Counted from the first letter of the stretch, positions 29,491 through 46,852 are shown. The stretch is 46,932 nucleotides of DNA from an uncultured Candidatus Peribacteria bacterium (GCA_964603225.1 CAZRUI010000001.1:1-46932); one strand, 5' to 3'. A program made the numbers and translations. Notes: generated by a model not told the origin, from the letters alone.

Positions 29491-30495
29491 GTGAACCAGA
29501 GAGTCCGTCAACTGGCCGTGAACGTGGGCGTTCTACTGGCCACGCTCGCGCTGCTCACGGCCGCCATGGAAGTGTTCCTGCGGGCGTCCTTCATCCAGCC
29601 CATGGGCGCCCGGCAGGTGCGCCTACACCGGCCGAGCGACATCGAAGGGCTCGTATATGAGCTGCTGCCGGACGTCCGCACGCGCGGGTTCGGGCGGGAA
29701 ACGATCACCACGAACAGCCAGGGGTTCCGATCTCCGGAACGCGATCCCGCCAAGCCGCTCATCGCCGTCGTGGGCGATTCCTACACCTTCGGCCACGGCG
29801 TAGAGGACCACCAGACCAACCCCGCCAACCTGCAGCGGCAGTTTCCCGAGGCGTACGTCCTGAACGCCGGCGTGGATGGGTACAACATCGAACAGCAGGC
29901 GATCGTGGTGCGAGAGCGAGTCATGCCGCTCAAGCCGGCGCTGCTCATCGTGGAATTCGTGTTCAACGACGCGCAGCCGAAGGGCGTGGTGTATCCGGAC
30001 GGCACCATCCAGGTGGGCCACATCCGTACGCCGGAAGAGAACGACGCCCTGGTGAAGCAGGCCATCACCCGCAAGGGACTGCTCAACTTCCCAGGAAAAC
30101 TTTTCCTGCAAAAGTACAGCGCCATCTTCGTGTTCCTGGAACGGACCACCAAAGGCCTCCCCTTCCGTAAGAAGATCCCCGATACCGCCGATACGTTCAC
30201 CGCGCAGGACGTGGCGTTCTACGAGCGGTGGTTCGCGCAGCTGAGCGACGCCGCCGGCGACACGCCGCGCCTGTTCGTAATCTGGCCGGAGAGCAACTGG
30301 CATACGGAATCCCGCGCCGCCCTGCGCCGCATGGCGGCAGGGCGCGGCTTCACGGTGGTGGATCTATACGATGACCTGGGGAACGGCTACCGGCATCTGG
30401 GCTGGGATTACCATCCCCATCCCAGCGTGCACGAGCGCGTGGCGGGGATCCTAGCTCGGACCGTCCGCGAACAGAACCTTCTGCCGCTGCCCTAA
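29491..30495 (+). CDS. Membrane-anchored SGNH/GDSL hydrolase (paralog 3 of 3)
   Basis: 334 aa. GTG start with TACAAT 7 nt upstream. Motifs VVGDSYTFGHGV, AGVDGYN, GWDYHPHP. Confidence 0.75.
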   Translation: MNQRVRQLAVNVGVLLATLALLTAAMEVFLRASFIQPMGARQVRLHRPSDIEGLVYELLPDVRTRGFGRETITTNSQGFRSPERDPAKPLIAVVGDSYTFGHGVEDHQTNPANLQRQFPEAYVLNAGVDGYNIEQQAIVVRERVMPLKPALLIVEFVFNDAQPKGVVYPDGTIQVGHIRTPEENDALVKQAITRKGLLNFPGKLFLQKYSAIFVFLERTTKGLPFRKKIPDTADTFTAQDVAFYERWFAQLSDAAGDTPRLFVIWPESNWHTESRAALRRMAAGRGFTVVDLYDDLGNGYRHLGWDYHPHPSVHERVAGILARTVREQNLLPLP

Positions 30496-32939: not shown

Positions 32940-32957
32940 TCGCACGGAGTATACCTC

Positions 32958-32963
32958 TACACT
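32958..32963 (+). promoter_or_regulatory. -10 box TACACT, 6 nt upstream of in-frame GTG 32970
   Basis: Read directly. Argues for 32970 rather than 32964 as the start. Confidence 0.45.
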
Positions 32964-33710
32964 GTGGACGTGTTCCACGGCAAGCGCATCGTCGTTGTCA
33001 TGCCGGCGTACAACGCGGAGAAGACCCTGGAGGTCACGCACCGGGATTTGCCGCATGACATCGTGGACGAGGTGATCCTGGTGGATGACGCCAGCCATGA
33101 CGACACGGCCGCTCTGTCCCGCCGGCTGGGCATCACCACTGTGGTGCATCCAAAGAACAAGGGATACGGCGGCAACCAGAAAACGTGCTACGCGACCGCC
33201 CTGGAGCACGGCGCGGACGTGGTTATCATGGTCCACCCGGACTACCAGTACGATCCCAAGCTGGTGGTGGCTATAGCGGCGATGATCGTGGACGGTCCGT
33301 ACGAGGCGGTGATCGGCTCGCGCATCCTGGGCGGGCACGCGCTGCGCGGGGGCATGCCCCTGTGGAAGTACGTTGCCAATCGCTTCCTCACGGCAACGGA
33401 AAACCTGCTCCTGGGCGCCAAGCTCTCGGAGTACCACACGGGTTACCGCGCGTTCTCCCGCAAGACGCTCGAGGCCGTCCCCTGGCTGCGCAACTCGGAT
33501 GACTTCATCTTTGACAACCAGATGCTGGCGCAGGTGATCATGCGCGGGATTCTTGTGGGAGAGATCTCCTGTCCCACCAAGTACTTCAAGGAGGCCTCGT
33601 CCATCAACTTCCGCCGCAGCGTACGCTACGGCCTGGGAGTCCTGGGCGTGTCGCTGCGCTACCGCCTACACAAGACCGGCCTGCGCAAAGATCTGCTCTT
33701 CATCCCCTAA
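32964..33710 (+). CDS. GT2 glycosyltransferase, Dpm1/CsbB/GtrB-like (putative polyprenol-phosphate sugar synthase)
   Basis: 248 aa. In-frame GTG 32970 has TACACT 6 nt upstream and may be the true start. Motifs [38 protein letters not shown]. Confidence 0.85.
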
Positions 33711-35597: not shown

Positions 35598-35692
35598 TGA
35601 ATATGGATGAAGGGCAAAAAATCAAAAGATAACAATAGCAAAAAGGAAAGCCTTATTTCTTTTTCGCCCTTTGGACCCTTTTCTCCTTTTCA
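35598..35692. repeat. AAAGG/CCTTT-unit imperfect inverted repeat (same family as 7819..7936)
   Basis: gaagggcaaaaaatcaaaag..gcaaaaaggaaag / ccttatttctttttcgccctttggacccttttctccttttcac. Lies between the GT1 stop (35690) and the wecB promoter. Confidence 0.6.
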
Positions 35693-36838
35693 CTGTACTC
35701 CCTCCAAGATCCGTCTCATCCGCTCCTCCCACGTGTGCTGCCGCACGATCTCCCGAGCGGCATCCGCGCGCTTCTGGGCTTCCTCCGGATGCTGCGCCAC
35801 CCATAGGAGGGAGTCCGCCATGGCAGACGGATCCCCCGGCACGCAGAACACCGCCGTGTCCTCCGAGAGCACGTCGCGCACGGGCGGTAGGTCTGCGGTC
35901 ACAATCGGCCGGCCGGCTGCCATGTACTCAAAGAGCTTCAAGGGGGATGTGTCGCGCTGGTAGAAGGGATGGTCGGATTGCGGCGCTGGGTAAACCAGCA
36001 CGTCGCTGGCCGCGTGCGCCATGCGCACGTCCCGCGGCGGCAGATGCCCAACGAACGTGATGTGCGGCCGCAGGTCCGCCGGCATGGATGCCTGAAACTT
36101 CCGACGCGCCGCATCCGGTCCGCCGGCCAGCAGCGCGTGGAAGCTGATACCCCGTCGCCGCAAGCGCTCCAGCGCTCCGAGAAGCTCCGGGATCCCCTTG
36201 GAGAGCCCAGCGGATTCCAGCTGTCCGGCGTACCCGATGGTCCAGGCAGATCGGGGAATGCCGAACCGCCGGCGTACGGCGTCGCGCTCCGGCAGGGCCT
36301 TGAGCGCGCTCGATCGGACAGCGTCACCCGCCACCACGGTGCGGACGGACGGCTCGCGATTGAGCAGCTCCCGCTCCATGGCGCGTGTGAGGCAGACGAC
36401 AAGCGTGCAGCGACGCAGATCCGTCCGCATGCGGCGCGTGAGACGGGGGATGCGGTGCAGTTCCAGAACAACCGGCATTCCCCTATCCAGCAGGACCGGC
36501 AGCAGCGCCGGCGCCCGCGTGTACGCCAGATCGAACTGCTCGGGCGAAAGACAACTGCGCAGCGCGCGCCGCAGCGACGCGTTCATGAACCACAGCCCCA
36601 GCACCGCGGGCGTGAACGGGCTCTTGATGAAATCGAACGAACCGAGCGCCCGAACCCGCACCGCGCGGTCCGCGCCGTAGTACGTCCAATAGTCCTGCTC
36701 CACCACGTTATGGCGGAACGGGTGGAACACGGTCACGTCATGCCCAAGCTTCACCAGCGCGTCGCACACCTGTGCGATCTGGTGGCCGTGCGCCCGTTCG
36801 GAAGGCAGCCGGACGTTGGTGCAGTAGGCAATGCGCAT
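35690..36838 (-). CDS. Glycosyltransferase family 1 (GT4-type)
   Basis: ATG 36838 (MRIAYCTNV) forms a TGATG overlap with the upstream GT2 stop. Motif DTSPLKLFEYMAAGRPIV. Confidence 0.85.
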   Translation of the reverse strand: MRIAYCTNVRLPSERAHGHQIAQVCDALVKLGHDVTVFHPFRHNVVEQDYWTYYGADRAVRVRALGSFDFIKSPFTPAVLGLWFMNASLRRALRSCLSPEQFDLAYTRAPALLPVLLDRGMPVVLELHRIPRLTRRMRTDLRRCTLVVCLTRAMERELLNREPSVRTVVAGDAVRSSALKALPERDAVRRRFGIPRSAWTIGYAGQLESAGLSKGIPELLGALERLRRRGISFHALLAGGPDAARRKFQASMPADLRPHITFVGHLPPRDVRMAHAASDVLVYPAPQSDHPFYQRDTSPLKLFEYMAAGRPIVTADLPPVRDVLSEDTAVFCVPGDPSAMADSLLWVAQHPEEAQKRADAAREIVRQHTWEERMRRILEGVQ

Positions 36839-37701
36839 CAACCATGGCGCACGTTACGCCGGATGGGTACTGTGAGCCAGATGAGGGTCCAGGCGTACCG
36901 GACCGCGAGCCATTCGTACCGGAACGGCATCAGGTGCCCCTCGCCGGGCAGGAGGCGCAGCTGCGCGGACCGCACCAGGATCGCCGCCATGGTGCGCAGG
37001 TTGCGGTACAGGATCCAGCGCCCCCACGCCGCCCAGCCCCTGTGCGCCGAACGGGCCCGCTCGATGGCTAGGTAACGGCGGTATTTGGGCCACAGCCGAT
37101 CAGCCGGCGGCAGCGGAGTGCGGATCTCCGCGCGGAGAATGCGCGGTTCCACGCCGGGACGCAGCGCCAGCCGCTCATGGACAGTCTTCACGAACCCGTC
37201 GGTGCAGCCGCGGTGGAAGAGGCGGATCTGGTACACCGGGTAACCCGCGCAGCGATCGATCCGCTTCCCATCAACGTAGAAGCGGCGGAACGCCCGGTAG
37301 ACTGCCGACTCGTCGACCCGCACGATGGTGCGCACCTCTTCGCAGAGCGCCGGCTCGATCTCCTCATCCGAATCCACCAACAGCACCCAAGGGAACTGGG
37401 ACTGCGCCAGCGCCGCGTTCCGCACGCCGGAGAAATTGGTGATCCTGCCGTCAGGGTCCAGGAACCGCGGATCCTGGTCGACCACGCGCGCATTGGAGAA
37501 ACGGCCGGCTGTTTCCCGCGTCCCGTCGGTCGATCCGCCATCCGCCACCAGCACTTCAGCAAATTCCTGCAAAGACTCCAGGCAACGCTCCACGCCCGGC
37601 AGGCTGTTGCGGGTGAGGACCAGGACGCTGCAGGGAATGGGATTCGATGACACGAACAACGGGGGTGACGGTGCGCTCGCGAGGAACTGCCGAATTATCA
37701 A
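36838..37701 (-). CDS. GT2 glycosyltransferase
   Basis: 287 aa. Motifs CSVLVLTRNS, LVADGGSTDGT, LLVDSDEE. Start is TTG 37701 (GATAAT 6 nt upstream, inside the TGATAAT array) or GTG 37653. Confidence 0.8.
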   Translation of the reverse strand: MIIRQFLASAPSPPLFVSSNPIPCSVLVLTRNSLPGVERCLESLQEFAEVLVADGGSTDGTRETAGRFSNARVVDQDPRFLDPDGRITNFSGVRNAALAQSQFPWVLLVDSDEEIEPALCEEVRTIVRVDESAVYRAFRRFYVDGKRIDRCAGYPVYQIRLFHRGCTDGFVKTVHERLALRPGVEPRILRAEIRTPLPPADRLWPKYRRYLAIERARSAHRGWAAWGRWILYRNLRTMAAILVRSAQLRLLPGEGHLMPFRYEWLAVRYAWTLIWLTVPIRRNVRHG

Positions 37702-37726
37702 TTATCCATTATCAATTATCAATTCG
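37691..37726. repeat. Direct tandem heptamer array (TCAATTA x about 4.5; TGATAAT on the minus strand)
   Basis: cgaatta tcaatta tccatta tcaatta tcaattcg. No complementary arm seen nearby. Confidence 0.8.
37708..37713 (-). promoter_or_regulatory. -10-like GATAAT (one of the iterated TGATAAT units), 6 nt upstream of TTG 37701
   Basis: Reverse complement of attatc. Further copies of the same box lie upstream in the array. Confidence 0.35.
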
Positions 37727-37729
37727 TGC

Positions 37730-38755
37730 TCAAATTCCAGGGCGAACGTACGTATCCATCTTCATCATCAGCTCCTCCAGACTATGGCGCTCCGCGACCA
37801 CCCGGTACATCTCCTCCTCGCTGAGCGGGAGGCGGTCAAAGTACCGCATGACGAACTCGTGCATGGCTTCCGGCGTGTCATGCGCCGGTGCCGCCGGCAG
37901 TCCGATCGCCTGGGCGTTCCCATGGGTGGTGACCGGATAGCAACCACAGGTCAGGGCTTCCAGCATGGTCTTGTCGATCGTCTCCGAAGCCATGTTCAGG
38001 ATCAGCCAGTGCCGCGCGTAGATTGCGGGTAGCTCGCGTGCCGCGACCGAGCCGCGGAACGTCACGCGGTCGGATAGTTCCAGTCGTTCCACGAGCATCC
38101 TAAGTTCCTTGGCATAATCCGGCTCCGGCTCATTGCCGTAGATGTCCAGCGTGAAGTGTTTGGGAAGAAGACGCATCGCATGCAACGAGAGCTCCACGCG
38201 CTTGCTGCGCGCCAGTCTGTGGACCATGAGCAGCCTATGCGGTTCAGTGCAGCGGTTCTGTCGCTTGGGCCAGTACGTCAGATCGATCCCATGGCCCGTC
38301 ACCACCTTCTTGGGATTCCCCTCATAGCGGGGCAGGCTCTGCGGTGTAGCACAGAAGAGGCGCTTGCCGTACCAGCCGAGCAACCGCAGCCCCAGCTGCA
38401 GCTGGTAGTGCGTGTACCACAGGTACACGGGCGTTCGGCGCAGGATCCACACCGGCATCCCAAAGATCCCCCACACAGGGGTCATGTGGATGAACACCCG
38501 GTCGTACTGGAGCTGCGCGACCAGACCCAGGAACTGCAGGACCTGCCCGAGCTTGCCAACCCCCCGCTCCTTCCCGAGCGAGTGCACCTCCGCCGTGAAT
38601 GGCTCGCCGTGACCGAGCAGGCGGCCCACCTCCTCCACCCGCGCCTCCAGGCAGATCACCTTCACCTCATACCCCAGCTGCTGGAACTGCCGGATCCAGA
38701 GCGCGCCAAAGGCATCCTGCCCGTGGAGCTTCTGCGTGATGAAGAGGAGGGTCAC
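37730..38755 (-). CDS. Glycosyltransferase family 1 (GT4-type)
   Basis: ORF track 37730..38815. Start moved to GTG 38755 (VTLLFITQKL), with TATCCT 6 nt upstream; the 20-codon extension lies in the hairpin repeat. Motif MASETIDKTMLEALTCGCYPV. Confidence 0.8.
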   Translation of the reverse strand: MTLLFITQKLHGQDAFGALWIRQFQQLGYEVKVICLEARVEEVGRLLGHGEPFTAEVHSLGKERGVGKLGQVLQFLGLVAQLQYDRVFIHMTPVWGIFGMPVWILRRTPVYLWYTHYQLQLGLRLLGWYGKRLFCATPQSLPRYEGNPKKVVTGHGIDLTYWPKRQNRCTEPHRLLMVHRLARSKRVELSLHAMRLLPKHFTLDIYGNEPEPDYAKELRMLVERLELSDRVTFRGSVAARELPAIYARHWLILNMASETIDKTMLEALTCGCYPVTTHGNAQAIGLPAAPAHDTPEAMHEFVMRYFDRLPLSEEEMYRVVAERHSLEELMMKMDTYVRPGI

Positions 38756-38761
38756 GGACGA

Positions 38762-38767
38762 AGGATA
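38762..38767 (-). promoter_or_regulatory. -10 box TATCCT, 6 nt upstream of GTG 38755
   Basis: Reverse complement of aggata. Abuts the hairpin arm. Confidence 0.5.
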
Positions 38768-38855
38768 CAGAGGACTCAGAGGATCCAGAAGACTCAGAAG
38801 AACGCTGTGCCACATCCGCTGAGTCCTCTGCGTCTTCTGAGTCCCCTGAGTCTTA
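38768..38855. repeat. Hairpin with arms of tandem 9-mers (CAGAGGACT type)
   Basis: Left arm cagaggact cagaggatc cagaagact cagaag. Right arm ctgagtcct ctgcgtctt ctgagtccc ctgagtctt. About 24/30 complementary by eye; 18-nt loop. Confidence 0.8.
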
Positions 38856-39965
38856 TCGGGCGAAGCCCTTCAGAAACTCCGCATACTGCCTGATCAGTGT
38901 CTTCCGCTCAAACCGCTCCAGGATCTTCCGCGCCGCCTGGCCCAGGCGCTCCTGGACGGCAGTATCCGTAAGCAACCGGCTGATCTGCCGCGACAGGTCA
39001 CGGACCGAGCCGTCTGTGAACACGCCATTCTCCCTGTCACGGATCACCTCCGGCATCGCGCCCACGCGCGTGGCAATGACGGGCAGACCTAAGGCCATCG
39101 CCTCCAGCGCGCTGCGCGGACCGCCCTCGCTCCTGGAGTTCATCACAAAGATCCGCCCGCTCTGCATCGCATGTACCAGCTGCCGCTGATCAGGCAACCA
39201 GCCGGCGAACGCCACGCGGTCGGCCATCCCTCTCGTTTGTACGCGCCTCTGCAGGCGCGTCTTGAGCGGCCCGTCGCCGATCAGGAGCAGGCGCACGCCG
39301 GGGAGCGCGCCCACCGCGTCGATCAGCTCCAAAAGCCCCTTATTGGCCACCAGCCGCGCCGCAGTGACCACGTCGTACGCCTTTGCGACGGCTGCGTCCG
39401 GCTTCAGGGCACCTGCATCCAGGTAGAACGAAGGAACGAGGCGGAGCTTCTCCCCCGGTACGCCCCAGGCAACCAGCAGGTCCATCACCGACCGGCTCAC
39501 CACCCGCACGCCGCAGGCCCGCCGCGCCGCCCAGGGCAGGTAGAGGCGGGACATCAGGCGACCAGCGCGCTCCGCGAGCGACGCCGCCGTGGGCGCACCC
39601 ACCACGTGGTGCACTTCCAGGACGTACGGGATACCGGACACGCGGTGGAGCTTCCTTGCCCCCAGTCCATTGAAGAACGGCGGGTACTCATGGACGGTCA
39701 TCACGTCATGATGATGGTCGGCGATCAGCTGCGCCCCCTTCTCCGTAATCCATCTCTTCTGCCACGCGAGCGGCCATGGGGAGGGGTGGAACCACACATT
39801 CTCAAATTCCGACGTCTGACCACTAACCACTGGCCACTGGCCACTCCTTGGACAGATCACATCCACCCGCTCCCAATGCGTATGGAACTCTTCCAGGGTG
39901 TGCCAGAACGCCCCCCGCTTCCCCGCCAGGATGGAACGGTCGCCGGAGATCATCAAAAGCTTCAC
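38853..39965 (-). CDS. Glycosyltransferase family 1 (GT4-type)
   Basis: ORF track 38853..40025. Start moved to GTG 39965 (VKLLMISGD), with CATAAT 6 nt upstream. Motif NSRSEGGPRSALEAMALGLPVIAT. Contains the in-frame heptamer array at 39816..39845 (SGQWPVVSGQ). Confidence 0.8.
   Translation of the reverse strand: MKLLMISGDRSILAGKRGAFWHTLEEFHTHWERVDVICPRSGQWPVVSGQTSEFENVWFHPSPWPLAWQKRWITEKGAQLIADHHHDVMTVHEYPPFFNGLGARKLHRVSGIPYVLEVHHVVGAPTAASLAERAGRLMSRLYLPWAARRACGVRVVSRSVMDLLVAWGVPGEKLRLVPSFYLDAGALKPDAAVAKAYDVVTAARLVANKGLLELIDAVGALPGVRLLLIGDGPLKTRLQRRVQTRGMADRVAFAGWLPDQRQLVHAMQSGRIFVMNSRSEGGPRSALEAMALGLPVIATRVGAMPEVIRDRENGVFTDGSVRDLSRQISRLLTDTAVQERLGQAARKILERFERKTLIRQYAEFLKGFAR
39816..39845. 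repeat. CCACT-heptamer array embedded in frame in a GT4 CDS
   Basis: ctgaccact aaccact ggccact ggccact. Translated on the minus strand as SGQWPVVSGQ. Confidence 0.75.
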
Positions 39966-39970
39966 AGCTG

Positions 39971-40046
39971 AATTATGAATGAGGAATGATGAATCATGAA
40001 GGCCAGCCGCCGCATACTTCCTCATTCACGATTCCTGATTCTTAGG
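39971..40046. repeat. Hairpin with arms of tandem heptamers (GAATGAG/GAATCAT type)
   Basis: Left arm aattatg aatgagg aatgatg aatcatg aagg. Right arm cttcctcattcacgattcctgattcttagg. The right arm encodes the last codons of 40026..41237; the left arm contains the -10 of 38853..39965. Confidence 0.8.
39972..39977 (-). promoter_or_regulatory. -10 box CATAAT, 6 nt upstream of GTG 39965
   Basis: Reverse complement of attatg. Lies inside the hairpin arm. Confidence 0.5.
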
Positions 40047-41237
40047 AGCGGCAACTCCTTCAGCTAGCCCCTCAAACAGCTCCATCCACTCATCCGCCAC
40101 CTGCTCCCAGCTGCGCGCGGGGAGAGGCGCGGACGCAGCCTCCGCTGCTTCCGCATAGGATTGTTCCAGCTCCAGCACCGCCCGGGCAATGTCCTCCGCC
40201 TCCCGCAGGGGCGCAAGGACCATGCCCGCCGTGAGCTCCGGAGAGAGGCCCGTCTCCTCCGTGAGGAGGACCGGCATGCCCGCCGCGCGCGCCTCCAAGG
40301 CCGCATTGGGGCTGATCTCCGTGAGGGACGGAATGACCAGCGCGTCATGGTCCCGGAATACCGCCGCCTTCTCCGTAGGCCCCCTGGATGCCTGGAAGCT
40401 CACGCGATCGATGATCATGAGCGCTTGCGCCTCCTGCTTGAGCTGTTTCAAGAGCGGCCCCTCTCCCACAACCGACAGCCGCACGTGCGGCAGCCGCGCC
40501 ACGGCCCGGAGCAGGGCGGAGAGGTTCTTGAACCCCACCAGCCGCCCGAACCACAGGAGCCGCACCGGCCGCTCTTTGAGCTCTGCTGCTCGCGCGGCGT
40601 ACGGCACGTCCGCCGGCAAATTGAGGGAGGGGAACGCGTTCTGGATCACCAGATGCCGCCGGATATCCGGGTACGCCAAGCGGTAGAGGTGCTCCTGGAA
40701 CGCCGTGGTGAAGGCGATGGCATGGAACCTGGGGAGGAGCGGCTGGAGGAACACGCGGTTGAGCCGCCGCGTGAGGCGGTAGGCGAGCGCGTCCTGCACC
40801 GTGCCGCTCGCGGAAACCGGCCGCGACCGGTACCACTCCCGGAGCGTCCGCTTGCCACCCATCCCCGTGTACCGCTCCCAGAAGTAATCCCCGCCCACGC
40901 GCAGCACCCGGTACGGCTTCTTCAGTTTGGCCATTCTGAGCGGCATGCCCACGGAGACGGAGGAGAACGCCAGCACCACGTCCGCGTCCGCCGCGTACCG
41001 GCGCAATACCCCCGCGTACCGCCGCCAACGCACCACCGGCCCGCCCGCGCGGGACACCCGCACCACCGGCATGCCGCCGCTCTCATCCCGCGCCACTCCG
41101 CCCTTCACCTCCTTGGCGAACGTGATGACCGTCACATCCTGTCCCCGCCGCAGGAGCTCCTTGCCCAGCGCATCCACGTACGTAGCCGGACCGCCGATCT
41201 CCGGAAGAGCGATGCCGGTAGCGAGGATAATCTTCAT
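40026..41237 (-). CDS. Glycosyltransferase family 1 (GT4-type)
   Basis: 403 aa, starts MKIILATGIALPEIGGPATY. Motif PSLTEISPNAALEARAAGMPVL. ATGA overlap with the upstream four-helix-bundle gene. The last 7 codons are encoded by the hairpin arm. Confidence 0.85.
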   Translation of the reverse strand: MKIILATGIALPEIGGPATYVDALGKELLRRGQDVTVITFAKEVKGGVARDESGGMPVVRVSRAGGPVVRWRRYAGVLRRYAADADVVLAFSSVSVGMPLRMAKLKKPYRVLRVGGDYFWERYTGMGGKRTLREWYRSRPVSASGTVQDALAYRLTRRLNRVFLQPLLPRFHAIAFTTAFQEHLYRLAYPDIRRHLVIQNAFPSLNLPADVPYAARAAELKERPVRLLWFGRLVGFKNLSALLRAVARLPHVRLSVVGEGPLLKQLKQEAQALMIIDRVSFQASRGPTEKAAVFRDHDALVIPSLTEISPNAALEARAAGMPVLLTEETGLSPELTAGMVLAPLREAEDIARAVLELEQSYAEAAEAASAPLPARSWEQVADEWMELFEGLAEGVAAPKNQES

Positions 41238-41623
41238 GAGATGTGGGACTTGAGTGATGAGACTTGAGTGAGAAGCTTGCTGTGAAAACTGTGCAGCATA
41301 CGGCTCAACCCATCAATGGATTCCAGGATGCACGGAGCGCGATCTTCAGTTATTCGACCAAGTTCCCTAGCGATGATCACCTGAGTTTCCAGTTCGGCCA
41401 GAGACCCACGGGCAATAAGGAGAAAATTTGCGAATTCTTTAACCGTACTACGCTGGCTACCTTCAGCGATATTCGATGGCACAGAAACAGCAGCTCGACG
41501 CATCTGGGAAGTTAAGCCATAGAGCTCTGTCTTGGGAAACTCTTCTGTGCACTCATAGATCATCTTCACAATCTCAATGCTTTTCTGCCAAATCTTTAGC
41601 TTTTTATAAGACATGCCAATCAT
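41234..41623 (-). CDS. Four-helix-bundle protein (23S rRNA intervening-sequence protein / Avd-like family)
   Basis: 129 aa. Motifs YKKLKIWQKS, LTSQMRRAAVSVPSNIAEG, FANFLLIARGSLAELETQ. TACTAT sits 6 nt upstream of ATG 41623. About 46% GC by hand count over 41281..41640, against GC-rich neighbours. Confidence 0.85.
   Translation of the reverse strand: MIGMSYKKLKIWQKSIEIVKMIYECTEEFPKTELYGLTSQMRRAAVSVPSNIAEGSQRSTVKEFANFLLIARGSLAELETQVIIARELGRITEDRAPCILESIDGLSRMLHSFHSKLLTQVSSLKSHIS
41238..41275. repeat. Left terminal inverted repeat (ACTTGAG/TGATGAG heptamers) flanking the four-helix-bundle ORF
   Basis: Segment 41247-41275 (gacttgagtgatgagacttgagtgagaag) matches the reverse complement of 41637-41667 at 22/29 positions (hand alignment). 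Confidence 0.75.
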
Positions 41624-41629
41624 ATCGCC

Positions 41630-41635
41630 ATAGTA
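41630..41635 (-). promoter_or_regulatory. -10 box TACTAT, 6 nt upstream of ATG 41623 (four-helix-bundle gene)
   Basis: Reverse complement of atagta. Confidence 0.5.
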
Positions 41636-41636
41636 C

Positions 41637-41667
41637 TACTCATGTCTCAAGTCTCATATCTCAAATC
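41637..41667. repeat. Right terminal inverted repeat flanking the four-helix-bundle ORF
   Basis: Sequence tactcat gtctcaa gtctcat atctcaa atc. Overlaps the rfbB stop codon (41661-41663). Confidence 0.75.
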
Positions 41668-42599
41668 TTCTTCGTATACCAGTCAACCGTCCGCTCGATC
41701 CCCTCCTCAAACGCCACCCTGGGTTCCCAGCCGAGCGAGCGGATGAGGCTTGAATCCACGCGGTAGGCCCAGTCATGACCTGGACGATCCGGGACGAATT
41801 CGATCAGGCTCTCCGGTTTCCCCAGGATCCGGAGTACCGTCCTGGCGACTTCAATATTCTCTCTCTCCTGGTCGGGACCGATCAGGTACACCCAGCCGTC
41901 TTCGCCTTTCTCCCGCACCAGCTCCACCGCGTCGGTGTGGTCCGTCACGTACAGCCAATCCCGCTTCTGTTTGCCCTGCCCGTAGAGGGGAATATTCCCG
42001 TTTGCGAGCGCGTTCCGGATGATCACCGGGATGAGCTTGGTCTTGTCCTGGTGCGGACCGTAGTTGTTGGTACAGCGGGTGATGCGGATTTTGAGGTCAT
42101 ACGTGCGGCGCGCGGCCAGGAGCATCAGATCGCCCGCCGCCTTGGTGGCCGCATAGGGATTGGACGGCCGCAGGGGTGACTCCAGGTTGAACGCCGGCTC
42201 GTCATCCTGCACGTCGCCGTAGACCTCGTCGGTGGAGACGTGGACGAGCAGGATTGCCGGGTGGGCTTTGAGGATCTCCATGAGGCTCTGCACGCCCACG
42301 ATGTTCGCATGGAGGAACGGCAGCGCGTTCTCAATCGACCGGTCCACGTGCGTCTCCGCGGCAAAATTCACGATCTGCTCAATGCCGTACCGCGTGACCA
42401 GCTGCTCCAGGAGCTCCACATCCGCAATGTCCCCCTGGATGAACCGGATCCGGTTAATGACGGAGTCCAGAAGACTCTTGTCCGCCGCGTAGTTCAGGCT
42501 GTCCAAAACGATGACCGTGTCGTCCGGATACCGGTCGATATGCCGCAGGACGTAGTGGGAACCGATGAAGCCCGCTCCTCCGGTTACTAAGATGGTCAT
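41661..42599 (-). CDS. rfbB: dTDP-glucose 4,6-dehydratase
   Basis: ORF track 41661..43124. Start moved to ATG 42599 (MTILVTGGAGFIGSH), with TATCCT 6 nt upstream. Motifs YAATKAAGD (YxxxK) and CTNNYGPHQ. Confidence 0.92.
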   Translation of the reverse strand: MTILVTGGAGFIGSHYVLRHIDRYPDDTVIVLDSLNYAADKSLLDSVINRIRFIQGDIADVELLEQLVTRYGIEQIVNFAAETHVDRSIENALPFLHANIVGVQSLMEILKAHPAILLVHVSTDEVYGDVQDDEPAFNLESPLRPSNPYAATKAAGDLMLLAARRTYDLKIRITRCTNNYGPHQDKTKLIPVIIRNALANGNIPLYGQGKQKRDWLYVTDHTDAVELVREKGEDGWVYLIGPDQERENIEVARTVLRILGKPESLIEFVPDRPGHDWAYRVDSSLIRSLGWEPRVAFEEGIERTVDWYTKKI

Positions 42600-42605
42600 A
42601 TGCTC

Positions 42606-42611
42606 AGGATA
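42606..42611 (-). promoter_or_regulatory. -10 box TATCCT, 6 nt upstream of ATG 42599 (rfbB)
   Basis: Reverse complement of aggata. Confidence 0.55.
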
Positions 42612-42617
42612 CAACGG

Positions 42618-42705
42618 CGATTGAATGTGGAATATCGAATGTCGAATTTCGAGTAAGAATGGTTGGCTGATCGATATTCCATATTCGACATTCGGTATTC
42701 GAACC
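42618..42705. repeat. Hairpin with arms of tandem heptamers (TCGAATG/GGAATAT type)
   Basis: Left arm cgattgaatgtggaatatcgaatgtcgaatttcga. Right arm gatcgatattccatattcgacattcggtattcgaacc. About 23/33 complementary. Lies between the divergent rfbB and rfbA -10 boxes. Confidence 0.8.
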
Positions 42706-42729
42706 ATGTTTTCCCACTTCAAATTCCCG

Positions 42730-42735
42730 TACAAT
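42730..42735 (+). promoter_or_regulatory. -10 box TACAAT, 8 nt upstream of ATG 42744 (rfbA)
   Basis: Read directly from the sequence. Confidence 0.55.
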
Positions 42736-42743
42736 ACCTCCCT

Positions 42744-43493
42744 ATGAAGGGCGTCCTCATCTGCGGCGGTACCGGCTCGCGCCTGCGGCCGCTCACGGAG
42801 ATCACCAATAAGAGCCTCCTGCCGGTCTACGACCGGCCACTCATCGATTACCCGCTGCAGGTGCTCCTCCGCGCGGGCATTGCGGACATCATCGTCATTA
42901 CGGGGCCGGAACACATGGACCAGATCGCCGCGTTCCTGGGTTCCGGAGAGAAGTTCGGCTGCACGTTCGCCTTCCGGGTGCAGGAGAAGCCGGGCGGTAT
43001 TGCGCAAGCACTGGGGCTGGCGGAGGAGTTTGTGGCCGGGGACATCCTCTGCGCGATCCTGGGGGACAACGTCTACTTGGATGACCTCTCTCCGGCCATC
43101 AAAGCGTTCGAACACGGGGCGCATGTGTTCCTAAAGGAAGTGCCGGATCCGGAGCGCTTTGGCGTTGCCGAGGTCCGGTCGTCACTGACCACCGACCACT
43201 CGCCACTGACCACTGTGGTATCGATCGAGGAAAAACCCTCCGTCCCCAGATCGAACCTGGCCGTCACTGGCTGCTACCTCTACGATGCCCGGTGTTTTGA
43301 CTTCATCCGCACGCAGGAACCCTCCCCCCGGGGCGAGCTGGAGATCACGGACGTGAGCCGCCGCTACCTGGAACTGGGCGAACTCCAGGCGTCCGTGCTG
43401 ACGGACGAATGGATCGATGCCGGAACGTTCGAGAGCCTCTACCGCGCGGCGACCGTGGTGCGGGAGCGGCGCCTCTCCGCTGCCGAGTCATGA
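42744..43493 (+). CDS. rfbA: Glucose-1-phosphate thymidylyltransferase (short-form sugar nucleotidyltransferase)
   Basis: ORF track 42663..43493. Start moved to ATG 42744 (MKGVLICGGTGSRLRPLT), with TACAAT 8 nt upstream. Motifs NKSLLPVYDRPLIDYPL and SIEEKP. In-frame heptamer array at 43181..43215 (SSLTTDHSPLTT). Confidence 0.88.
   Translation: MKGVLICGGTGSRLRPLTEITNKSLLPVYDRPLIDYPLQVLLRAGIADIIVITGPEHMDQIAAFLGSGEKFGCTFAFRVQEKPGGIAQALGLAEEFVAGDILCAILGDNVYLDDLSPAIKAFEHGAHVFLKEVPDPERFGVAEVRSSLTTDHSPLTTVVSIEEKPSVPRSNLAVTGCYLYDARCFDFIRTQEPSPRGELEITDVSRRYLELGELQASVLTDEWIDAGTFESLYRAATVVRERRLSAAES
43181..43215. repeat. CCACT-heptamer array embedded in frame in rfbA
   Basis: gtcact gaccacc gaccact cgccact gaccact g. 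Translated on the plus strand as SSLTTDHSPLTT, between the conserved FGVAE and SIEEKP. Confidence 0.75.
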
Positions 43494-43981
43494 CAACAGT
43501 GCTGCACGCCGGGTTGGAGGAACTTGTCGCGCGAGCCGAAGCCGAAGGCCGCACGCTGGTGGTAGGCGCGGGGATCCAGCACGCAGGCCGCCTGCTCCTG
43601 GTCCGCCGCGCAACTACGGAAAATTTTCTGGCTGAGTACTGGGAAGTCCCCGGCGGCAAGGTAGACCAAGACGAATCGATCTTAGATGCGCTCGTACGGG
43701 AAGTCCGCGAGGAGACAGCCCTGGAGATCAGAGACATTCGTGACTGCGTCGGCATGTTCGATTACGACCTTCCGGAAGGCCTCTTCTGCCAGTTCACGTT
43801 CCTGGTGGACGTGACGCACCCTCACCTCACCCTCAATCCCGCGGAGCACGACGCGCGTCGGTGGATCCATCCGAGCGAGCGGCCGACGCTCGATACCCTG
43901 CGCCTTACGCCCCAGATGCGCGCTATGCTAGCAGTCCTGTTCCACCGGATGGAGGGTCAGGCCACCAGCATCTCCGCGTAG
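43490..43981 (+). CDS. NUDIX hydrolase
   Basis: ORF track 43409..43981. ATG 43490 forms an ATGA overlap with the rfbA stop. Nudix box GGKVDQDESILDALVREVREETAL. Confidence 0.85.
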   Translation: MTTVLHAGLEELVARAEAEGRTLVVGAGIQHAGRLLLVRRATTENFLAEYWEVPGGKVDQDESILDALVREVREETALEIRDIRDCVGMFDYDLPEGLFCQFTFLVDVTHPHLTLNPAEHDARRWIHPSERPTLDTLRLTPQMRAMLAVLFHRMEGQATSISA

Positions 43982-45114
43982 ACCTGGCCGTACCGGGCCG
44001 CTATGGCGGACCAGTCGTAGTGCTGAGCATGTTGGCGACCGGCCTCAGCGGCCTGTTCGCGGAGTTTCGGGTTCTGGAGATACACTTGAATCGCCTCCGC
44101 CGCTGCGGCCGGATCATCTGGCGCAACTAGCGTCCCCGCCGCTTTGGGCACGATCTCCGGGATACCCTGGACAGTTGTAGCCACCACCGCGCAGCCCGCT
44201 GCCTGCGCTTCCAGGAAGACGTTCCCAAACGCCTCCGATCGCGACAGCCCGCAGAAGACCTCCGCCTCTGCGAACTCCCGCAGGAGATCTAGACCCGTGA
44301 GGTACCCCCGGAACGTCACGTGCCGATCGACCCCCAGTTCCCGGGCCAGCTGCTGGAGCTGTTTCCTGAGCGAACCATCGCCCACGATGTGCAGATGTGG
44401 AGCGATGAGCGATGAGCGGGTAGCGGTGAGCTTGGCTGCTCCTTGTTTCCGCCCGCCGCTCACAGCTCTCCGTTCGCGCTGACCACTGACCGCTGACCAC
44501 TGACCGCTCACTATCGCGAACGTTCGCAGAAGAACATCCACCCCCTTCATCGGCTCCAGACGGCCAACGAACAGCACCCGCTCCGGCACCTTGTCCCATT
44601 GACCGCACACCTCACGGGTGGCGTCCAGCGGGATACCGTTGGGGATGAGAGTCACGTCCGTACGGCCCAATGACGCGGCCCGGTCGATCAAGACCTGGCT
44701 AATAGCGGTGAGGCGGTGCGGGGCGCGGTGGATGGGACCGAGCAGGAAGGAAGTGTTCGTGCTCTGGAGCGTGAGGAGCCGCCGGGCATCCGGCACCAGC
44801 ATGCGCGCACACAGGAGCGCCACTCCGGCGTAGGATTCCAGCACGGCATGGAGGAGCGCGGGCCGCAGCCGCCTAGCGGTCCAGGCACTGAGGAGCGGGA
44901 AGAGCCACTTGTCGATCGGGAGGCCCAGGCCCACCCGGACAACGCTCACGCCCAGGAGGTCATCCTGCCGGGGCAAGCGGAGCCGCATGCGCGCCGTGAT
45001 GATCACCACGTCATAAGAGGCCGCAAGCCGCACCGCCACCTCCTCCGCGCACGCCTCCGCCCCGCTCCGCAGGGGGGAGAGGAACGCGGAGAGGACAACG
45101 ACACGCTGTTTCAC
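43957..45114 (-). CDS. Glycosyltransferase family 1 (GT4-type) carrying a translated hairpin-repeat insertion
   Basis: ORF track 43957..45168. GTG 45114 (VKQRVVVLSAF) preferred; ATG 45168 possible. Motif SRSEAFGNVFLEAQAAGCAVVAT. About 36 extra residues (SGQWSAVSGQ...TRSSLIA) lie just before the conserved HIVGDG. Confidence 0.8.
   Translation of the reverse strand: MKQRVVVLSAFLSPLRSGAEACAEEVAVRLAASYDVVIITARMRLRLPRQDDLLGVSVVRVGLGLPIDKWLFPLLSAWTARRLRPALLHAVLESYAGVALLCARMLVPDARRLLTLQSTNTSFLLGPIHRAPHRLTAISQVLIDRAASLGRTDVTLIPNGIPLDATREVCGQWDKVPERVLFVGRLEPMKGVDVLLRTFAIVSGQWSAVSGQRERRAVSGGRKQGAAKLTATRSSLIAPHLHIVGDGSLRKQLQQLARELGVDRHVTFRGYLTGLDLLREFAEAEVFCGLSRSEAFGNVFLEAQAAGCAVVATTVQGIPEIVPKAAGTLVAPDDPAAAAEAIQVYLQNPKLREQAAEAGRQHAQHYDWSAIAARYGQVYAEMLVA
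44400..44511. repeat. Complete two-armed GGTCAGT-family hairpin element embedded in frame in a GT4 CDS
   Basis: Arm 44400-44431 (gagcgatgagcgatgagcgggtagcggtgagc) matches the reverse complement of 44478-44509 at 23/32 positions (hand alignment). The right arm contains a perfect 14-nt tandem duplication (gctgaccactgacc x2). Confidence 0.75.
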
Positions 45115-45119
45115 AGTAC

Positions 45120-45198
45120 GGAATGGAAAATTGAAAATGGACAACGCACAATGACCGTCATTGTACATTGTAAATTGCCCATTCTACATTTCCCATTC
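45120..45198. repeat. Hairpin with arms of tandem heptamers (GAATGGA/AAATTGA type) plus a central perfect palindrome
   Basis: Left arm ggaatggaaaattgaaaatggacaa. Centre acaatga-ccg-tcattgt (45148-45164). Right arm ttgcccattctacatttcccattc. Confidence 0.8.
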
Positions 45199-46315
45199 AC
45201 GCGCTCTGCGACATCAATGCAAACAAATCTTGGTACTGCTTCCCCACCGCCTCCCAGCTGAAGTGCTCCTGGATCCGCTGCCGCGCCGCCTGCCCCATGG
45301 CCCGCCGCTTGGCGGGGTCCTCAAGCAACCGGCGAACGTGCGCCGCCAGGGCTTCTCGGTCCCCGGGCGGGAAGAGGAGCCCGGAGACGCCGTTCTGGAG
45401 GAGGAACCGGTTCCCGCCCACGTCGGTTGCTATGCACGCGCAGCCGCTCGCCATGGCTTCCATGAGGGCGTTACTGAGCCCCTCGCTGTGGCTGGGAAGA
45501 ACAAAGATGTCCGTCCCGGCCAGTACCGCCGGAATGTCGTCCCGCAAGCCGGTGAACGCCACGTCCCGCTCGTACCGCCGCACGAGCGGGTGGCCGTCCC
45601 GGTACCAACCAACTACTTGCAGCTTGAGGCGGGAATGGCTCTTTTTGAGCGGCACAACCGCTTCAAGGAAGTCATCGACGCCCTTGATGGACTCCAGCCG
45701 ACCGACGTATGTGACAGTGATCGCAGCGGAATCTGACCACTGACCACGGACTACCGACCACTGTGCCGGATCGATCCCGGTAGGAATCACTTGGCTCTTC
45801 CCAGCAAGGCCAAGCCGCCTCAGGAGCCGCTCCGGCTGCGGATGGAAGAACACGATTCTGGCAGCGCACAGCAGGATCAACCACCCCAGCGTCCACGCAT
45901 AGATGGCCGCGGCAATTTTGGGCAACCTGCCGCGCGGCCACCACGTCATGCCCACCAGGGCGTCCGTGAGCAGAATCACCCGCCGCCCCCGGAGCGCCAG
46001 GGAGAGGACGGACAGGGACGTCCAGAACAGAATCTTATTTACCACCACGATATCCGGCTGCTCCGACCGGATGAGCGCCCGCACGCGGCGGGAGAAGCCC
46101 CAGGCGATCCCATAGTTCCACGGATCGGGCAGGAAGAAGTCCCGGAAACGGTGAATGGCCAGCGTAGCCGAGACACGCTCTCCCCCCGTCTCCGCCCCCA
46201 TGCAGGCCATGATGACCCGGAAGCCCAGCCGCTGCCACAGTTCCGCCAGTTTCACCGAGCTCACCATCCAGCGGTGCTGCTCCTGCCAGTAGGGGGAGAT
46301 AAGGAGGATCTTCAC
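45197..46315 (-). CDS. Glycosyltransferase family 1 (GT4-type)
   Basis: 372 aa, GTG start (MKILLISPYW). Motif PSHSEGLSNALMEAMASGCACIAT. In-frame heptamer array at 45733..45763 (QWSVVRGQWS). Confidence 0.85.
   Translation of the reverse strand: MKILLISPYWQEQHRWMVSSVKLAELWQRLGFRVIMACMGAETGGERVSATLAIHRFRDFFLPDPWNYGIAWGFSRRVRALIRSEQPDIVVVNKILFWTSLSVLSLALRGRRVILLTDALVGMTWWPRGRLPKIAAAIYAWTLGWLILLCAARIVFFHPQPERLLRRLGLAGKSQVIPTGIDPAQWSVVRGQWSDSAAITVTYVGRLESIKGVDDFLEAVVPLKKSHSRLKLQVVGWYRDGHPLVRRYERDVAFTGLRDDIPAVLAGTDIFVLPSHSEGLSNALMEAMASGCACIATDVGGNRFLLQNGVSGLLFPPGDREALAAHVRRLLEDPAKRRAMGQAARQRIQEHFSWEAVGKQYQDLFALMSQSA
45733..45763. repeat. CCACT-heptamer array embedded in frame in a GT4 CDS
   Basis: ctgaccact gaccacg gactacc gaccact g. 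Translated on the minus strand as QWSVVRGQWS. Confidence 0.7.
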
Positions 46316-46320
46316 GGAGC

Positions 46321-46396
46321 GGTCAGAAGCGAGTGGTCAGTGATCAGTATGAGGAAAAAATCCACACCTGGCCACTGACCCCTGACCACTGATCAC
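46321..46396. repeat. Hairpin with arms of tandem heptamers (GGTCAGT / CCACTGACC family)
   Basis: Left arm ggtcaga agcgagt ggtcagt gatcagt. Right arm ctggccact gacccct gaccact gatcac. About 19/27 complementary. The loop contains a CATACT -10-like box for the minus strand. Confidence 0.8.
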
Positions 46397-46755
46397 TCTT
46401 CTGTGGAACTCTCATCCTGCGCCAAGCCGGCCTCTCTCAGCGCAATTTCCCTGACCAACTTGGCCTGCCGCTCTTCCAGCTCCTCCAACCGGATGACCAG
46501 GTAGAACACCATGAAGAAGAGGATGCCCAGGAACGTCACGACCACCGCGTTTTCCCGGTCGGCAACCCCCGTCAGGGCAGAGAGCGTGGTGAGGAGGTCC
46601 GGCAGGAGCGCAATGAGCGCCACCAATCCCCAGAAGAACGTCCAGAGCAGCGCTTCCCACACCGTCTTCTTGCCCCGCCGCACCAGCCCCCACGCGTACG
46701 CGACCGCGACCAGGGACAGGAGCGGCGCGATGATCTGGTAGGGGGTGAGAGACAT
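46393..46755 (-). CDS. DUF2304-family small membrane protein
   Basis: 120 aa with three or four TM spans, then a charged coiled tail (RLEELEERQAKLVREIA). This type usually sits next to a GT2 gene. Confidence 0.7.
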   Translation of the reverse strand: MSLTPYQIIAPLLSLVAVAYAWGLVRRGKKTVWEALLWTFFWGLVALIALLPDLLTTLSALTGVADRENAVVVTFLGILFFMVFYLVIRLEELEERQAKLVREIALREAGLAQDESSTEE

Positions 46756-46758
46756 GAC

Positions 46759-46838
46759 GCGAATGTTGAATAGCGAATGGCGAATGTGGAATACCGATGG
46801 GGTTCGACATTCGACATTCTATAGTCGATATTCGATCC
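46759..46838. repeat. Hairpin with arms of tandem heptamers (GCGAATG type; same family as 42618..42705)
   Basis: Left arm gcgaatg ttgaata gcgaatg gcgaatg tggaata ccg. Right arm ggttcgacattcgacattctatagtcgatattcgatcc. Shares cgaatgtcgaa and gaatatcga strings with 42618..42705. Confidence 0.8.
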
Positions 46839-46852
46839 TACAATAGCCAGAA

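Follow-up and report, generated by a model that had tools for sequence, protein, structure and literature searches.

The window analysed here, a 46,932-nt stretch of DNA from an uncultured Candidatus Peribacteria bacterium (GCA_964603225.1 CAZRUI010000001.1:1-46932), carries short tandem arrays of 7-nt units, most of which pair with a complementary array to form a hairpin. Our data show that these hairpins belong to a lineage-wide class of complementary heptamer arrays that occupy stop/start junctions and permissive loops of proteins and that the same stem design surrounds cassettes carrying a PF05635 gene in many phyla. Overall, the reading we favour is that the elements are heptamer stems without an open reading frame (ORF), akin to the intervening sequences (IVSs) of rRNA genes, which are selfish or near-neutral and settle at junctions between genes and, more rarely, in protein loops that tolerate them; we put the probability of this reading at about one half. 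Its main rival, weighed below together with several more conventional explanations, attributes the hairpins to mutation alone.

Heptamer arrays and stems in the window

Scanned by lag autocorrelation, with 16 or more of 21 positions required to match and expectations taken from block shuffles, the window has 13 period-7 arrays where 0.13 would be expected, all of them confined to 37690-46836, together with three arrays of period 9 (0.07 expected), three of period 6 (0.2 expected) and seven of period 14, the double period; at periods 4, 5, 8 and 10-13 the same scan of the window returns none. Tandem Repeats Finder (TRF) gives 18 period-7 rows, with 2.7-4.9 copies and 72-100% matches, including 37693-37724, 39969-40000, 41645-41668, 42630-42652, 42671-42702, 45122-45141, 45159-45190, 46368-46397, 46759-46786 and 46803-46836, and period-9 rows at 38768-38798, 38815-38852 and 7877-7933. 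From 35.5 to 46.9 kb there are nine non-overlapping spacers, eight of which hold arrays, much as a preliminary description, made from the sequence alone, had claimed for nearly every spacer, and its remark that these spacers are AT-rich in a GC-rich genome agrees with a spacer GC of 0.41-0.52 against 0.64 for the window. The elements are concentrated at the right end of the window because the first 35 kb is nearly spacer-free, its genes abutting or overlapping.

The units combine invariant with variable positions: at 42618-42705 and 46759-46838, GAAT returns at 7-nt intervals with ATTC opposite it, and the same recurrence can be seen by eye at 39971-40046. The unit CTGACCA is found at five sites inside 7 kb, and GAATNNN at three. 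All five CTGACCA-type arrays (39816, 43183, 44479, 45733 and 46368) read CTGACCA on the plus strand whichever way the host gene runs, and the reverse form occurs only as the partner arm at 46321-46347; GC skew is negative over the whole window, and a strand (replication) bias, of insertion or of expansion, may lie behind the common orientation.

Folded as coding-strand RNA and scored against 200 dinucleotide shuffles, most arrays pair as imperfect stems of 22-36 bp with z-scores of -2.6 to -7.2, and an inverted-repeat finder returns, at each hairpin given here, arms of 22-34 nt that are 71-85% complementary, in line with the 70-80% that had been estimated by hand. On the minus strand, ORF-less hairpins, whose loops measure 1-22 nt, lie at 38760-38856 (period 9, arms of about four nonamers, CAGAGGACT / AGTCCTCTG, 30 nt and 83% complementary; dG -54.2, z -7.2), at 45118-45200 ((N)AATGNN / NNCATT(N); arms 34 nt, 74%; dG -37.5, z -6.8), at 46315-46400 (TGGTCAG / CTGACCA; arms 31 nt, 71%; dG -41.8, z -5.2), at 46757-46840 (CGAATGN / NCATTCG, just upstream of the DUF2304 ATG at 46755; arms 32 nt, 78%; z -2.6) and at 39966-40050 (GAATNNN / NNNATTC, period 7; arms 22 nt, 82%), the last of which folds weakly (z -1.75). 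Another GAATNNN / NNNATTC hairpin, assigned to neither strand, occupies the divergent rmlB-rmlA spacer at 42615-42706 (arms 26 nt, 85%; z -2.8) and can be aligned with 46759-46838. The AATTATC array at 37691-37726 (minus strand; 4.6 copies, 92% matches), in the spacer between the glycosyltransferase (GT) genes GT37730 and GT2, had been called a locus of direct repeats only; it is mainly a direct array, as claimed, although a small internal hairpin is also present (z -3.5). Two further elements had been counted as hairpins of the same kind, and this part of the description is not confirmed: the purine-rich / pyrimidine-rich AAAGG / CCTTT element in the GT35690-wecB spacer (35598-35692, minus strand; no TRF row, not clearly heptameric) and the AAAGGG / CCCTTT element in the spacer that separates the GDP-mannose dehydratase gene from the next one (7819-7936, minus strand; TRF period 9/18) are partly alignable with each other and fold no better than shuffles (z -0.5 and -1.0, respectively).

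The architecture first described, an arm of 3-5 imperfect heptamers, a loop, a complementary arm and then the next start codon, proves correct, and with start codons refined from orthologues the stems extend exactly from stop to start. In four spacers (GT38853-GT37730, GT40026-GT38853, GT45197-GT43957 and DUF2304-GT45197) the stop codon of the gene upstream takes part in the pairing at the base of the stem, and in three of these the last paired base lies 1-3 nt before the next start. For example, the hairpin at 38760-38856 fills the whole 97-nt spacer between the GT38853 stop (38853-55) and the GT37730 GTG at 38755, its stem ending 3 nt before the GUG; that at 46315-46400 spans the distance from the DUF2304 stop (46393-95) to the GT45197 GTG at 46315, its stem ending 1 nt before the GUG; and that at 45118-45200 runs from the GT45197 stop (45197-99) to the probable start of GT43957, a GTG at 45114, homologues of GT43957 aligning only from residue ~17-23 of the long ORF. 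In the fourth spacer, the ~6 final codons of GT40026 and its stop lie in the 5' arm of 39966-40050, and the paired 3' arm ends ~9 nt before the GT38853 GTG (39965). Long-ORF calls thus run into the arms, which make up the first ~18 residues of the called GT43957 and the last residues of GT40026. Other junctions of the operon overlap, with ATGA at 36838-41 and 41234-37. The arms had also been said to have one correct antiparallel register, and here we disagree: when slid by 7 or 14 nt they pair nearly as well (for example, 20/24 pairs against 19, 20 and 18), and they are two arrays of complementary units with no one fixed register.

Four genes also contain heptamer arrays, which had previously been missed; read on the plus strand, all of these arrays are of the CTGACCA type. 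In GT43957 a whole hairpin (GAGCGAT... / ...CTGACCA; 44395-44515, minus strand; TRF and inverted repeats; z -2.8) lies in frame, and protein alignment shows that this 120-nt element contributes ~30 extra residues that are missing from 15 orthologues. TRF and alignment place the remaining three in regions of variable length: a CTGACCA-type array at 43183-43215 (plus strand) adds nine residues in frame to a variable loop of rmlA, another at 45731-45763 (minus strand) lies in a length-variable linker of GT45197, and a CTGACCA / CTGGCCA array at 39811-39848 (minus strand) in a length-variable loop of GT38853. Judged against 15-19 orthologues, the in-gene arrays are lineage-specific in-frame insertions. 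At the same RmlA loop, a relative, locus L013, has its own AAGCAGT/ACTGCTT hairpin (arrays at L013 8273-8353).

Peribacteria relatives and PF05635 cassettes

The host belongs to Candidatus Peribacteria, in the Candidate Phyla Radiation (CPR); its RmlB is 56-73% identical to that of ~20 Candidatus Peribacteria / Peregrinibacteria genomes, and less than 50% identical to all others. The gene order DUF2304 - GT - GT - (rmlA, reversed) - rmlB - GT - GT is kept in ~20 Peribacteria genomes, and many of these relatives carry heptamer hairpins at orthologous spacers, built from unrelated units (GGGAACA in L007; GGAACTT and GAATTGA in L009; GGACAAT in L004 and L016; AAGCAGT in L013; GACGAGT in L018; CGAAATN in L008 and L023), the remaining relatives having different hairpins or none. 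In 340 kb of the closest Peribacteria loci there are 60 period-7 arrays, against 1, 5, 8, 18 and 0 at periods 5, 6, 8, 9 and 10, and against 13 period-7 arrays in 906 kb from other taxa. The enrichment therefore extends beyond the window, a point on which the preliminary description had been prepared to see its proposal fail. Long ORFs contain period-7 arrays at 1.17 per 10 kb and the sequence outside them at 8.7 per 10 kb, and arrays are likewise plentiful in two further CPR loci, L068 (Paceibacterota) and L046.

The nearest genomes, at ~70% RmlB identity, have unrelated hairpin units, and arm changes can be followed in two anecdotal close pairs: L008 and L023 share the base of a stem and differ by an apical 54-nt indel, and between L010 and L012 a 4-nt indel in the 5' arm and an A-to-G change in the 3' arm jointly create an additional 6-bp helix.

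Other repeats and structures were seen in the same set of loci. In the DUF2304-GT spacer, L012:4343-4489 and L014:5846-6047 contain a GC-rich perfect hairpin, CATGGAAGG.AAACCTGCGGTTTTCCTTCCATGG, conserved in both species and followed by a second conserved stem; this structured element is not heptameric and is different from the heptamer hairpins, although it sits at the same junction. In the rmlB-GT spacer of L006 (6519-6780), from another Peribacteria genome, a (GGTT)n microsatellite of ~19 copies faces degenerate AAC-rich repeats, from which a long stem results. G-rich heptamers, GGGATTG / GGGGATT, occur at L009:1135-1168, 6106-6198, 7812-7843 and 12255-12290, and in the flanks of a metagenomic PF05635 gene (L129), and resemble the quadruplex-forming GGGGATT of Nostoc and GGGAATC of Xanthomonas.

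One stem in the window encloses a gene. The PF05635 / TIGR02436 gene at 41234-41623 (minus strand) encodes an Avd-like four-helix-bundle protein of the type annotated as '23S rRNA intervening-sequence protein' (Pfam PF05635, E 6.7e-39; NCBIfam TIGR02436; PDB 2GSC, Xanthomonas XCC0516, E 2.3e-27). It lies between rmlB (41661-42599, minus strand) and a GT4 gene and, as had earlier been overlooked, occupies the loop of a split hairpin whose 5' arm is at 41637-41667 (TGAGATA TGAGACT TGAGACA TGAGTAG; TRF period 7) and whose 3' arm is at 41238-41275 (CTCAAGT / CTCATCA units), both on the minus strand. That these distant arms belong together had been proposed, and folding supports it: in both the minimum free energy and centroid folds of the 449-nt transcript they close a ~27-bp stem around the ORF. 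The first unit of the 5' arm, TGAGATA, supplies the rmlB stop codon (41661-63), the 3' arm encodes the C-terminal 13 residues of the PF05635 protein, and the PF05635 stop overlaps the GT40026 ATG. GC at third codon positions is 0.49 in the PF05635 gene against ~0.8 in the neighbouring genes, and the gene looks recently acquired. It is the only PF05635 ORF found inside an element of the window, the other hairpins being ORF-less. The rmlB-GT40026 junction, where the cassette is found, looks like an insertion hot spot: relatives carry unrelated insertions of 340-650 nt there, with small ORFs of 70-190 aa, mostly on the opposite strand (L010:10922-11459, L012:8509-9050, L016:10946-11366, L020:10931-11575, L021:849-1447 and L011:10961-11302).

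The association of PF05635 genes with such arms recurs well outside the window. In L041, a Peribacteria locus of 32% GC whose two PF05635 genes are neighbours of rmlB and rmlA, both of them are flanked by complementary arrays of tandem 8-mers. We collected 80 metagenome loci with relatives of the window's PF05635 protein (47-68% identity, GC 28-61%), 58 of which are distinct with both flanks present; the flanks are complementary (Smith-Waterman z > 4, median z 5.7) in 40 of these 58, and the best lag is 7 in 35 of the 37 left flanks that are periodic. Array density is 3.3 per kb within 150 nt of the ends of the PF05635 gene, compared with 0.23 per kb elsewhere in the same loci, and arrays occur in 39 of the 76 spacers adjacent to PF05635 genes and in 6 of the 35 others (Fisher p = 8e-4). 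When 72,556 plasmids were searched with the window protein, 28 records matched, nearly all from heterocystous cyanobacteria (Nostoc 11, Calothrix 4, plus Trichormus, Anabaena and others), the lineages in which short tandemly repeated repetitive (STRR) heptamers were reportedly first described. Eight plasmid copies were fetched (seven cyanobacterial, one from Gemmatirosa), and all eight have heptamer arrays on at least one flank; the flank arrays are inverted in N. punctiforme (GGAGTCA), N. edaphicum (GGGAGTA), Anabaena 90 (AGGTGAC) and Picosynechococcus. The published table of Xanthomonas repeats likewise contains, uncommented by its authors, a GGGAATC x4 array 6 nt from bccP that overlaps the annotated start of XCC0516, the protein of 2GSC (PMC4692102). 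In cultured cyanobacteria, PF05635 genes (plasmid records L163-L170) occupy tight operon junctions, such as cas6-cas4 and cmr2-cmr3 in CRISPR-Cas operons and nrdB/nrdA, which encode ribonucleotide reductase subunits.

The arms can also travel. In L084 and L090 the PF05635 proteins are 84-87% identical and homology is limited to a unit of left array, ORF and right array, ~445 nt in all, the flanking genes of the two loci being unrelated even by tblastx; in this pair, the arms moved together with the ORF between unrelated contexts. L138 and L158 share the unit AGTGAAT and differ in copy number, and TGAG-type arm units are common to the related PF05635 genes of the window, L084, L085 and L090.

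Proposed mechanism and rival explanations

A general pathway for the spread and tolerance of ORF-less, IVS-like stems can be proposed. Consider the polycistronic mRNA of the window's operon, in which each element would fold into an imperfect duplex of 22-36 bp. Such a stem would bring stop and start together and bury the initiation region, and a ribosome terminating upstream would melt the base of the stem and expose the next start, so that the insertion would be translationally 'invisible' and keep translational coupling, or would even enforce it. Opening of the stem base by the terminating ribosome would in turn allow such elements to be tolerated in an operon whose other junctions overlap. 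The duplex would at the same time be a substrate for RNase III, and the operon transcript would be cut between cistrons; we predict this cleavage because of the precedents set by the heptamer stem of the Coxiella IVS and by the hmw1A hairpin of H. influenzae, and RNase III processing is the only one of the options listed in the preliminary description with experimental precedent for heptamer stems. The arms would lengthen and shorten in 7-nt steps via slipped-strand mispairing, as the register-independent arms and the copy-number differences between L138 and L158 and among Coxiella strains suggest. Finally, ORF-less stems would descend from, or spread like, ORF-bearing cassettes, and would be their non-coding counterpart in the way that ORF-less IVSs are the counterpart of ORF-bearing ones.

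A bolder reading, possible and in our judgement rather doubtful, is that the PF05635 genes with heptamer stems and the far commoner ORF-less stems constitute one widespread, hitherto unrecognised kind of mobile element that exists in autonomous and non-autonomous versions. Such an element would insert seamlessly at stop/start junctions, at the tips of rRNA helices and in protein loops, and would owe its tolerance to a stem that closes on itself. Were this so, it would join the STRR sequences of cyanobacteria, the paired GGGAATC arrays of Xanthomonas, the intervening sequences of 23S rRNA and the hairpins between genes of the CPR, and the orphan PF05635 protein would gain a role in spreading or maintaining the stems. 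We know of no accepted origin or function for heptameric tandem repeats, known since 1990, or for 23S rRNA intervening sequences, known from a similar date. PF05635, for its part, is a large orphan family whose members occur in operons, in CRISPR loci and in rRNA. Against this background, the stems that flank PF05635 genes are heptamer arrays in the CPR, cyanobacteria, Gemmatimonadota, Xanthomonas and Coxiella, and ORF-less versions fill gene junctions. Repeat mobility, the action of PF05635 on repeats and the punctuation of operon mRNAs by RNase III can all now be put to the test.

Several observations weigh against the IVS-like reading. Logan assemblies of three runs (SRR8893623, SRR8893624 and DRR736439) match the window at 100% identity, and across these three samples no ongoing change of copy number is seen in the window's arrays. 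The 21 closest Peribacteria loci, which make up the 340 kb with 60 arrays, contain zero PF05635 genes, and no decayed PF05635 fragments are found in the window's ORF-less hairpins or in the spacers of 80 rmlB loci; the descent of ORF-less stems from ORF-bearing ones is unproven. Among the plasmid copies, the flank arrays are direct in two (Pseudanabaena, (AAAAGCT)x15, and Gemmatirosa), and in two they are unrelated or present on one side only. The distance from stem to start in relatives is frequently 10-55 nt, and the hairpin at 42615-42706 lies between divergent genes, where no coupling role is possible. Cleavage and translational coupling in this organism we only infer. Across the window and 13 relatives' spacers, the sense strand folds more stably than the antisense in 8/13 (p = 0.45), and with no such asymmetry nothing shows selection at the level of RNA rather than DNA. 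The register-independent complementarity of the arms, moreover, is equally compatible with a purely mutational origin.

According to this main rival, replication slippage that in this lineage favours 7-nt steps, with quasi-palindrome template switching to copy one arm onto the other, would inflate any short inverted repeat at a gene junction as a pure by-product, with no function and no descent from PF05635 cassettes, which would merely lodge or be retained there. We consider it unlikely, but several observations fit it: besides the lack of a fixed register and of sense/antisense asymmetry, the units are locus-specific with copies alike within a locus, arrays occur wherever they are tolerated, protein loops included, the apex of the L008/L023 stem turns over above a conserved base, the direct-orientation PF05635 flanks look like a split pre-existing array, and the excess of heptameric simple sequence repeats (SSRs) has been attributed to polymerase slippage (PMC4692102). 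Local growth fares less well with the L084/L090 arms, which travel with their ORF to unrelated contexts, or with the related arm units retained by related PF05635 genes, and the recurrence of CTGACCA and of GAATNNN at several sites suggests dispersal instead. Neutral growth does not predict exact stop-to-start bridging either, and the paired L010/L012 changes, an indel and a substitution that together build an extra helix, also count against it. A second alternative would make the arrays iterons, that is, periodic 7-nt DNA or RNA sites at which a PF05635 pentamer or a cold-shock-type single-strand binder regulates the flanking genes. The pattern of conserved and free heptamer positions (GAAT every 7 nt, ATTC opposite) is what such sites might look like, the relatives of PF05635 (Avd) are nucleic-acid-associated accessory proteins of diversity-generating retroelements, and arm unit and PF05635 lineage sometimes co-vary; the arrays also adjoin start codons, as TAACTGA does in Beggiatoaceae, for which it has been noted that CspB binds about one heptamer per protein (PMC4679880). 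However, it is difficult to see how a single sequence-specific binder could serve units that differ at nearly every locus of one genome, PF05635 genes number one in the window and none in the 340 kb of related loci, and PF05635 is only a putative array binder whose Coxiella representative is probably not made, so that we regard regulation through iterons as improbable.

Ordinary transcription signals, either intrinsic terminators and attenuators or promoters in AT-rich spacers, would explain why AT-rich islands stand right before start codons in a 64% GC genome, and promoter-like matches on the coding strand do exist at 37722-37694 and 41648-41619. The -10 box said to follow each hairpin nevertheless finds no support: the window has 5 promoter-like sites where 2.5 +/- 1.6 are expected, which is no enrichment, and only two are on the coding strand. 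Terminator-like sites number 4 against 6.1 expected, none of them in any hairpin, and the stems lack U-tracts, in agreement with the earlier view that they are not intrinsic terminators; one hairpin lies between divergent genes and others inside ORFs, and the stems bury the start regions and do not expose them, all of which makes this explanation very unlikely. Least probable of all, to the point of being barely credible, are the known mobile or recombination palindromes: repetitive extragenic palindromic (REP) sequences and REPINs, which depend on a REP-associated tyrosine transposase (RAYT), miniature transposable elements with inverted repeats (MITEs), integron attC sites and degenerate CRISPR arrays. 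Intergenic imperfect palindromes of 60-100 nt with a conserved architecture and divergent sequence do bear a superficial likeness to attC and REP, and the in-frame occurrence inside genes recalls the Rickettsia palindromic elements. The loci, however, share no sequence family, and a scan of ~40 ORFs in 47 kb found no Y1 (RAYT) or DDE transposase and no integrase. REP/REPIN and MITE, both entertained at the outset, were rejected, the former on the locus-specific units and on the absence of a PF01797-type or other transposase in the 47 kb, the latter because nothing is shared beyond the unit within a locus and no target-site duplications flank the elements. For attC, core pairs (RYYYAAC...GTTRRRY) occur at chance level and in none of the hairpins, the one both-strand match (28567-28657, against 2.9 expected) lying outside them, and gene order is conserved over ~20 species, so the genes are not cassettes. 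CRISPR and known RNAs find no support in the window either, where a repeat-spacer structure and any Rfam family match are absent.

Genomic setting and known systems

The window has a GC content of 64% and consists almost entirely of a polysaccharide-biosynthesis cluster, with GT4, GT2 and GT9 transferases, sugar-nucleotide enzymes, a flippase-type transporter, methyltransferases and GDSL acylhydrolases. Five large ORFs of 414-981 aa (1609-3144, 3262-5031, 12771-14504, 14447-15691 and 30492-33437) have no Pfam match at E <= 1e-5; ARAGORN finds no tRNA in the window, and at gathering thresholds no Rfam family, rRNA included, matches it. In three samples, independent Logan contigs terminate at the AATTATC array, at 37693/37695, and two Logan contig sets join inside rmlB at 42214-42242 with an overlap of 29 nt; the assembly seems to break at arrays, or at a strain-variable point. 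For the annotation of CPR metagenomes this matters in practice, with gene calls that reach into the arms and so acquire false N-terminal extensions or repeat-coded C-terminal tails, and with assemblies that seem to break at arrays.

The preliminary description could assign the combination of architecture, periodicity and divergent sequence to no described repeat class, which is too strong, given that the window combines tandem heptamers of the STRR type with the stem design of PF05635 intervening sequences. Rickettsia palindromic elements are short palindromes that spread in a compact genome, also in frame inside genes. They, REP/REPIN and MITEs are families whose copies are nearly identical and have a transposase of their own or a known parent element, whereas the window's elements share architecture and periodicity only. 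Runs of at least three head-to-tail 7-nt copies, as in STRR sequences, are present in the window, and the Peribacteria loci have the lineage-specific, mainly intergenic period-7 excess that is typical of STRRs. The window's units (GAATNNN, TGGTCAG, AATTATC, TGAGANN and others) are not the canonical STRR units of heterocystous cyanobacteria (CCCCAGT, TTGGTCA and CAACAGT), and TGGTCAG is one base away from TTGGTCA, the STRR2 unit reportedly described by Mazel et al. 1990. The STRR sequences of Calothrix and Nostoc and the GGGAATC/GGGGATT repeats of Xanthomonas and Nostoc likewise consist of 2-26 imperfect 7-nt units, mainly intergenic and near start or stop codons, and in Xanthomonas 70-75 pairs of convergent inverted GGGAATC arrays can form stem-loops, are transcribed, and are conserved across species in position and variable in length and sequence (PMC4692102). 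The window differs in its host, a CPR bacterium of 64% GC, in the many unit types per genome where Xanthomonas has one dominant unit, in stems that bridge stop to start exactly and in its in-frame coding insertions; a link to PF05635 is absent from the papers on STRR and Xanthomonas repeats.

Among other heptamers, the TAACTGA repeats of marine Beggiatoaceae, cyanobacteria and Bacteroidetes resemble the window's in that 2-6 copies lie overwhelmingly in intergenic DNA a few nt before start codons; their patchy spread across phyla suggests horizontal transfer, and binding by a translational regulator, not the formation of stems, has been proposed (PMC4679880). Unlike the window's arrays, they are built from one specific unit and are nearly always direct, with one inverted case. 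The (ATCTTTC)n array in the 5' untranslated region (UTR) of H. influenzae hmw1A is also a transcribed heptamer array that forms one arm of a long hairpin, whose processing by RNase III alters expression, RNase III also being required for change of repeat number (PMC12721329). This, however, is a single contingency locus for phase variation of an adhesin, in which the repeat arm pairs with a G-rich region, and it has no dispersed symmetric stems. The literature that we searched contains no report of heptamer hairpins or repeats in the CPR, of exact stop-to-start bridging or of whole in-frame hairpins in enzymes, and no paper that links PF05635, S23 or four-helix-bundle proteins to heptamer repeats, although Elhai et al. 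2008, on small dispersed repeats in Nostoc, may mention it.

The window's cassette also resembles the IVSs. ORF-less IVS stems occur in other bacteria, and the ORF-bearing IVSs of Coxiella burnetii and Leptospira place a PF05635 ORF in the loop of a stem formed by terminal inverted repeats, 28 bp long in Coxiella and ~27 bp in the window, where four TGAGANN units in the 5' arm provide the tandem heptamers; stems of at least 20 bp that enclose an ORF are characteristic of IVSs. In the Coxiella 23S IVS, the S23p (PF05635) ORF is preceded by two to three GACAGAT repeats in the 5' arm, their number depending on the strain, RNase III cuts at the first repeat of the 28-bp terminal stem, and the S23p protein is probably not made (PMC4990558). 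The window contains no rRNA, and its elements lie between or inside the protein-coding genes of an operon and not in a 23S or 16S rRNA helix; most of its copies, unlike IVSs, are ORF-less, and their units are locus-specific. A general association of PF05635 with heptamer arrays appears undescribed, the Coxiella paper noting the repeats for that IVS only. In this context, the ingredients of the Peribacteria elements are each known, the heptameric SSRs from the STRRs of cyanobacteria, the GGGAATC arrays of Xanthomonas and the TAACTGA repeats of Beggiatoaceae, and the enclosing stem from the intervening sequences that bear PF05635.

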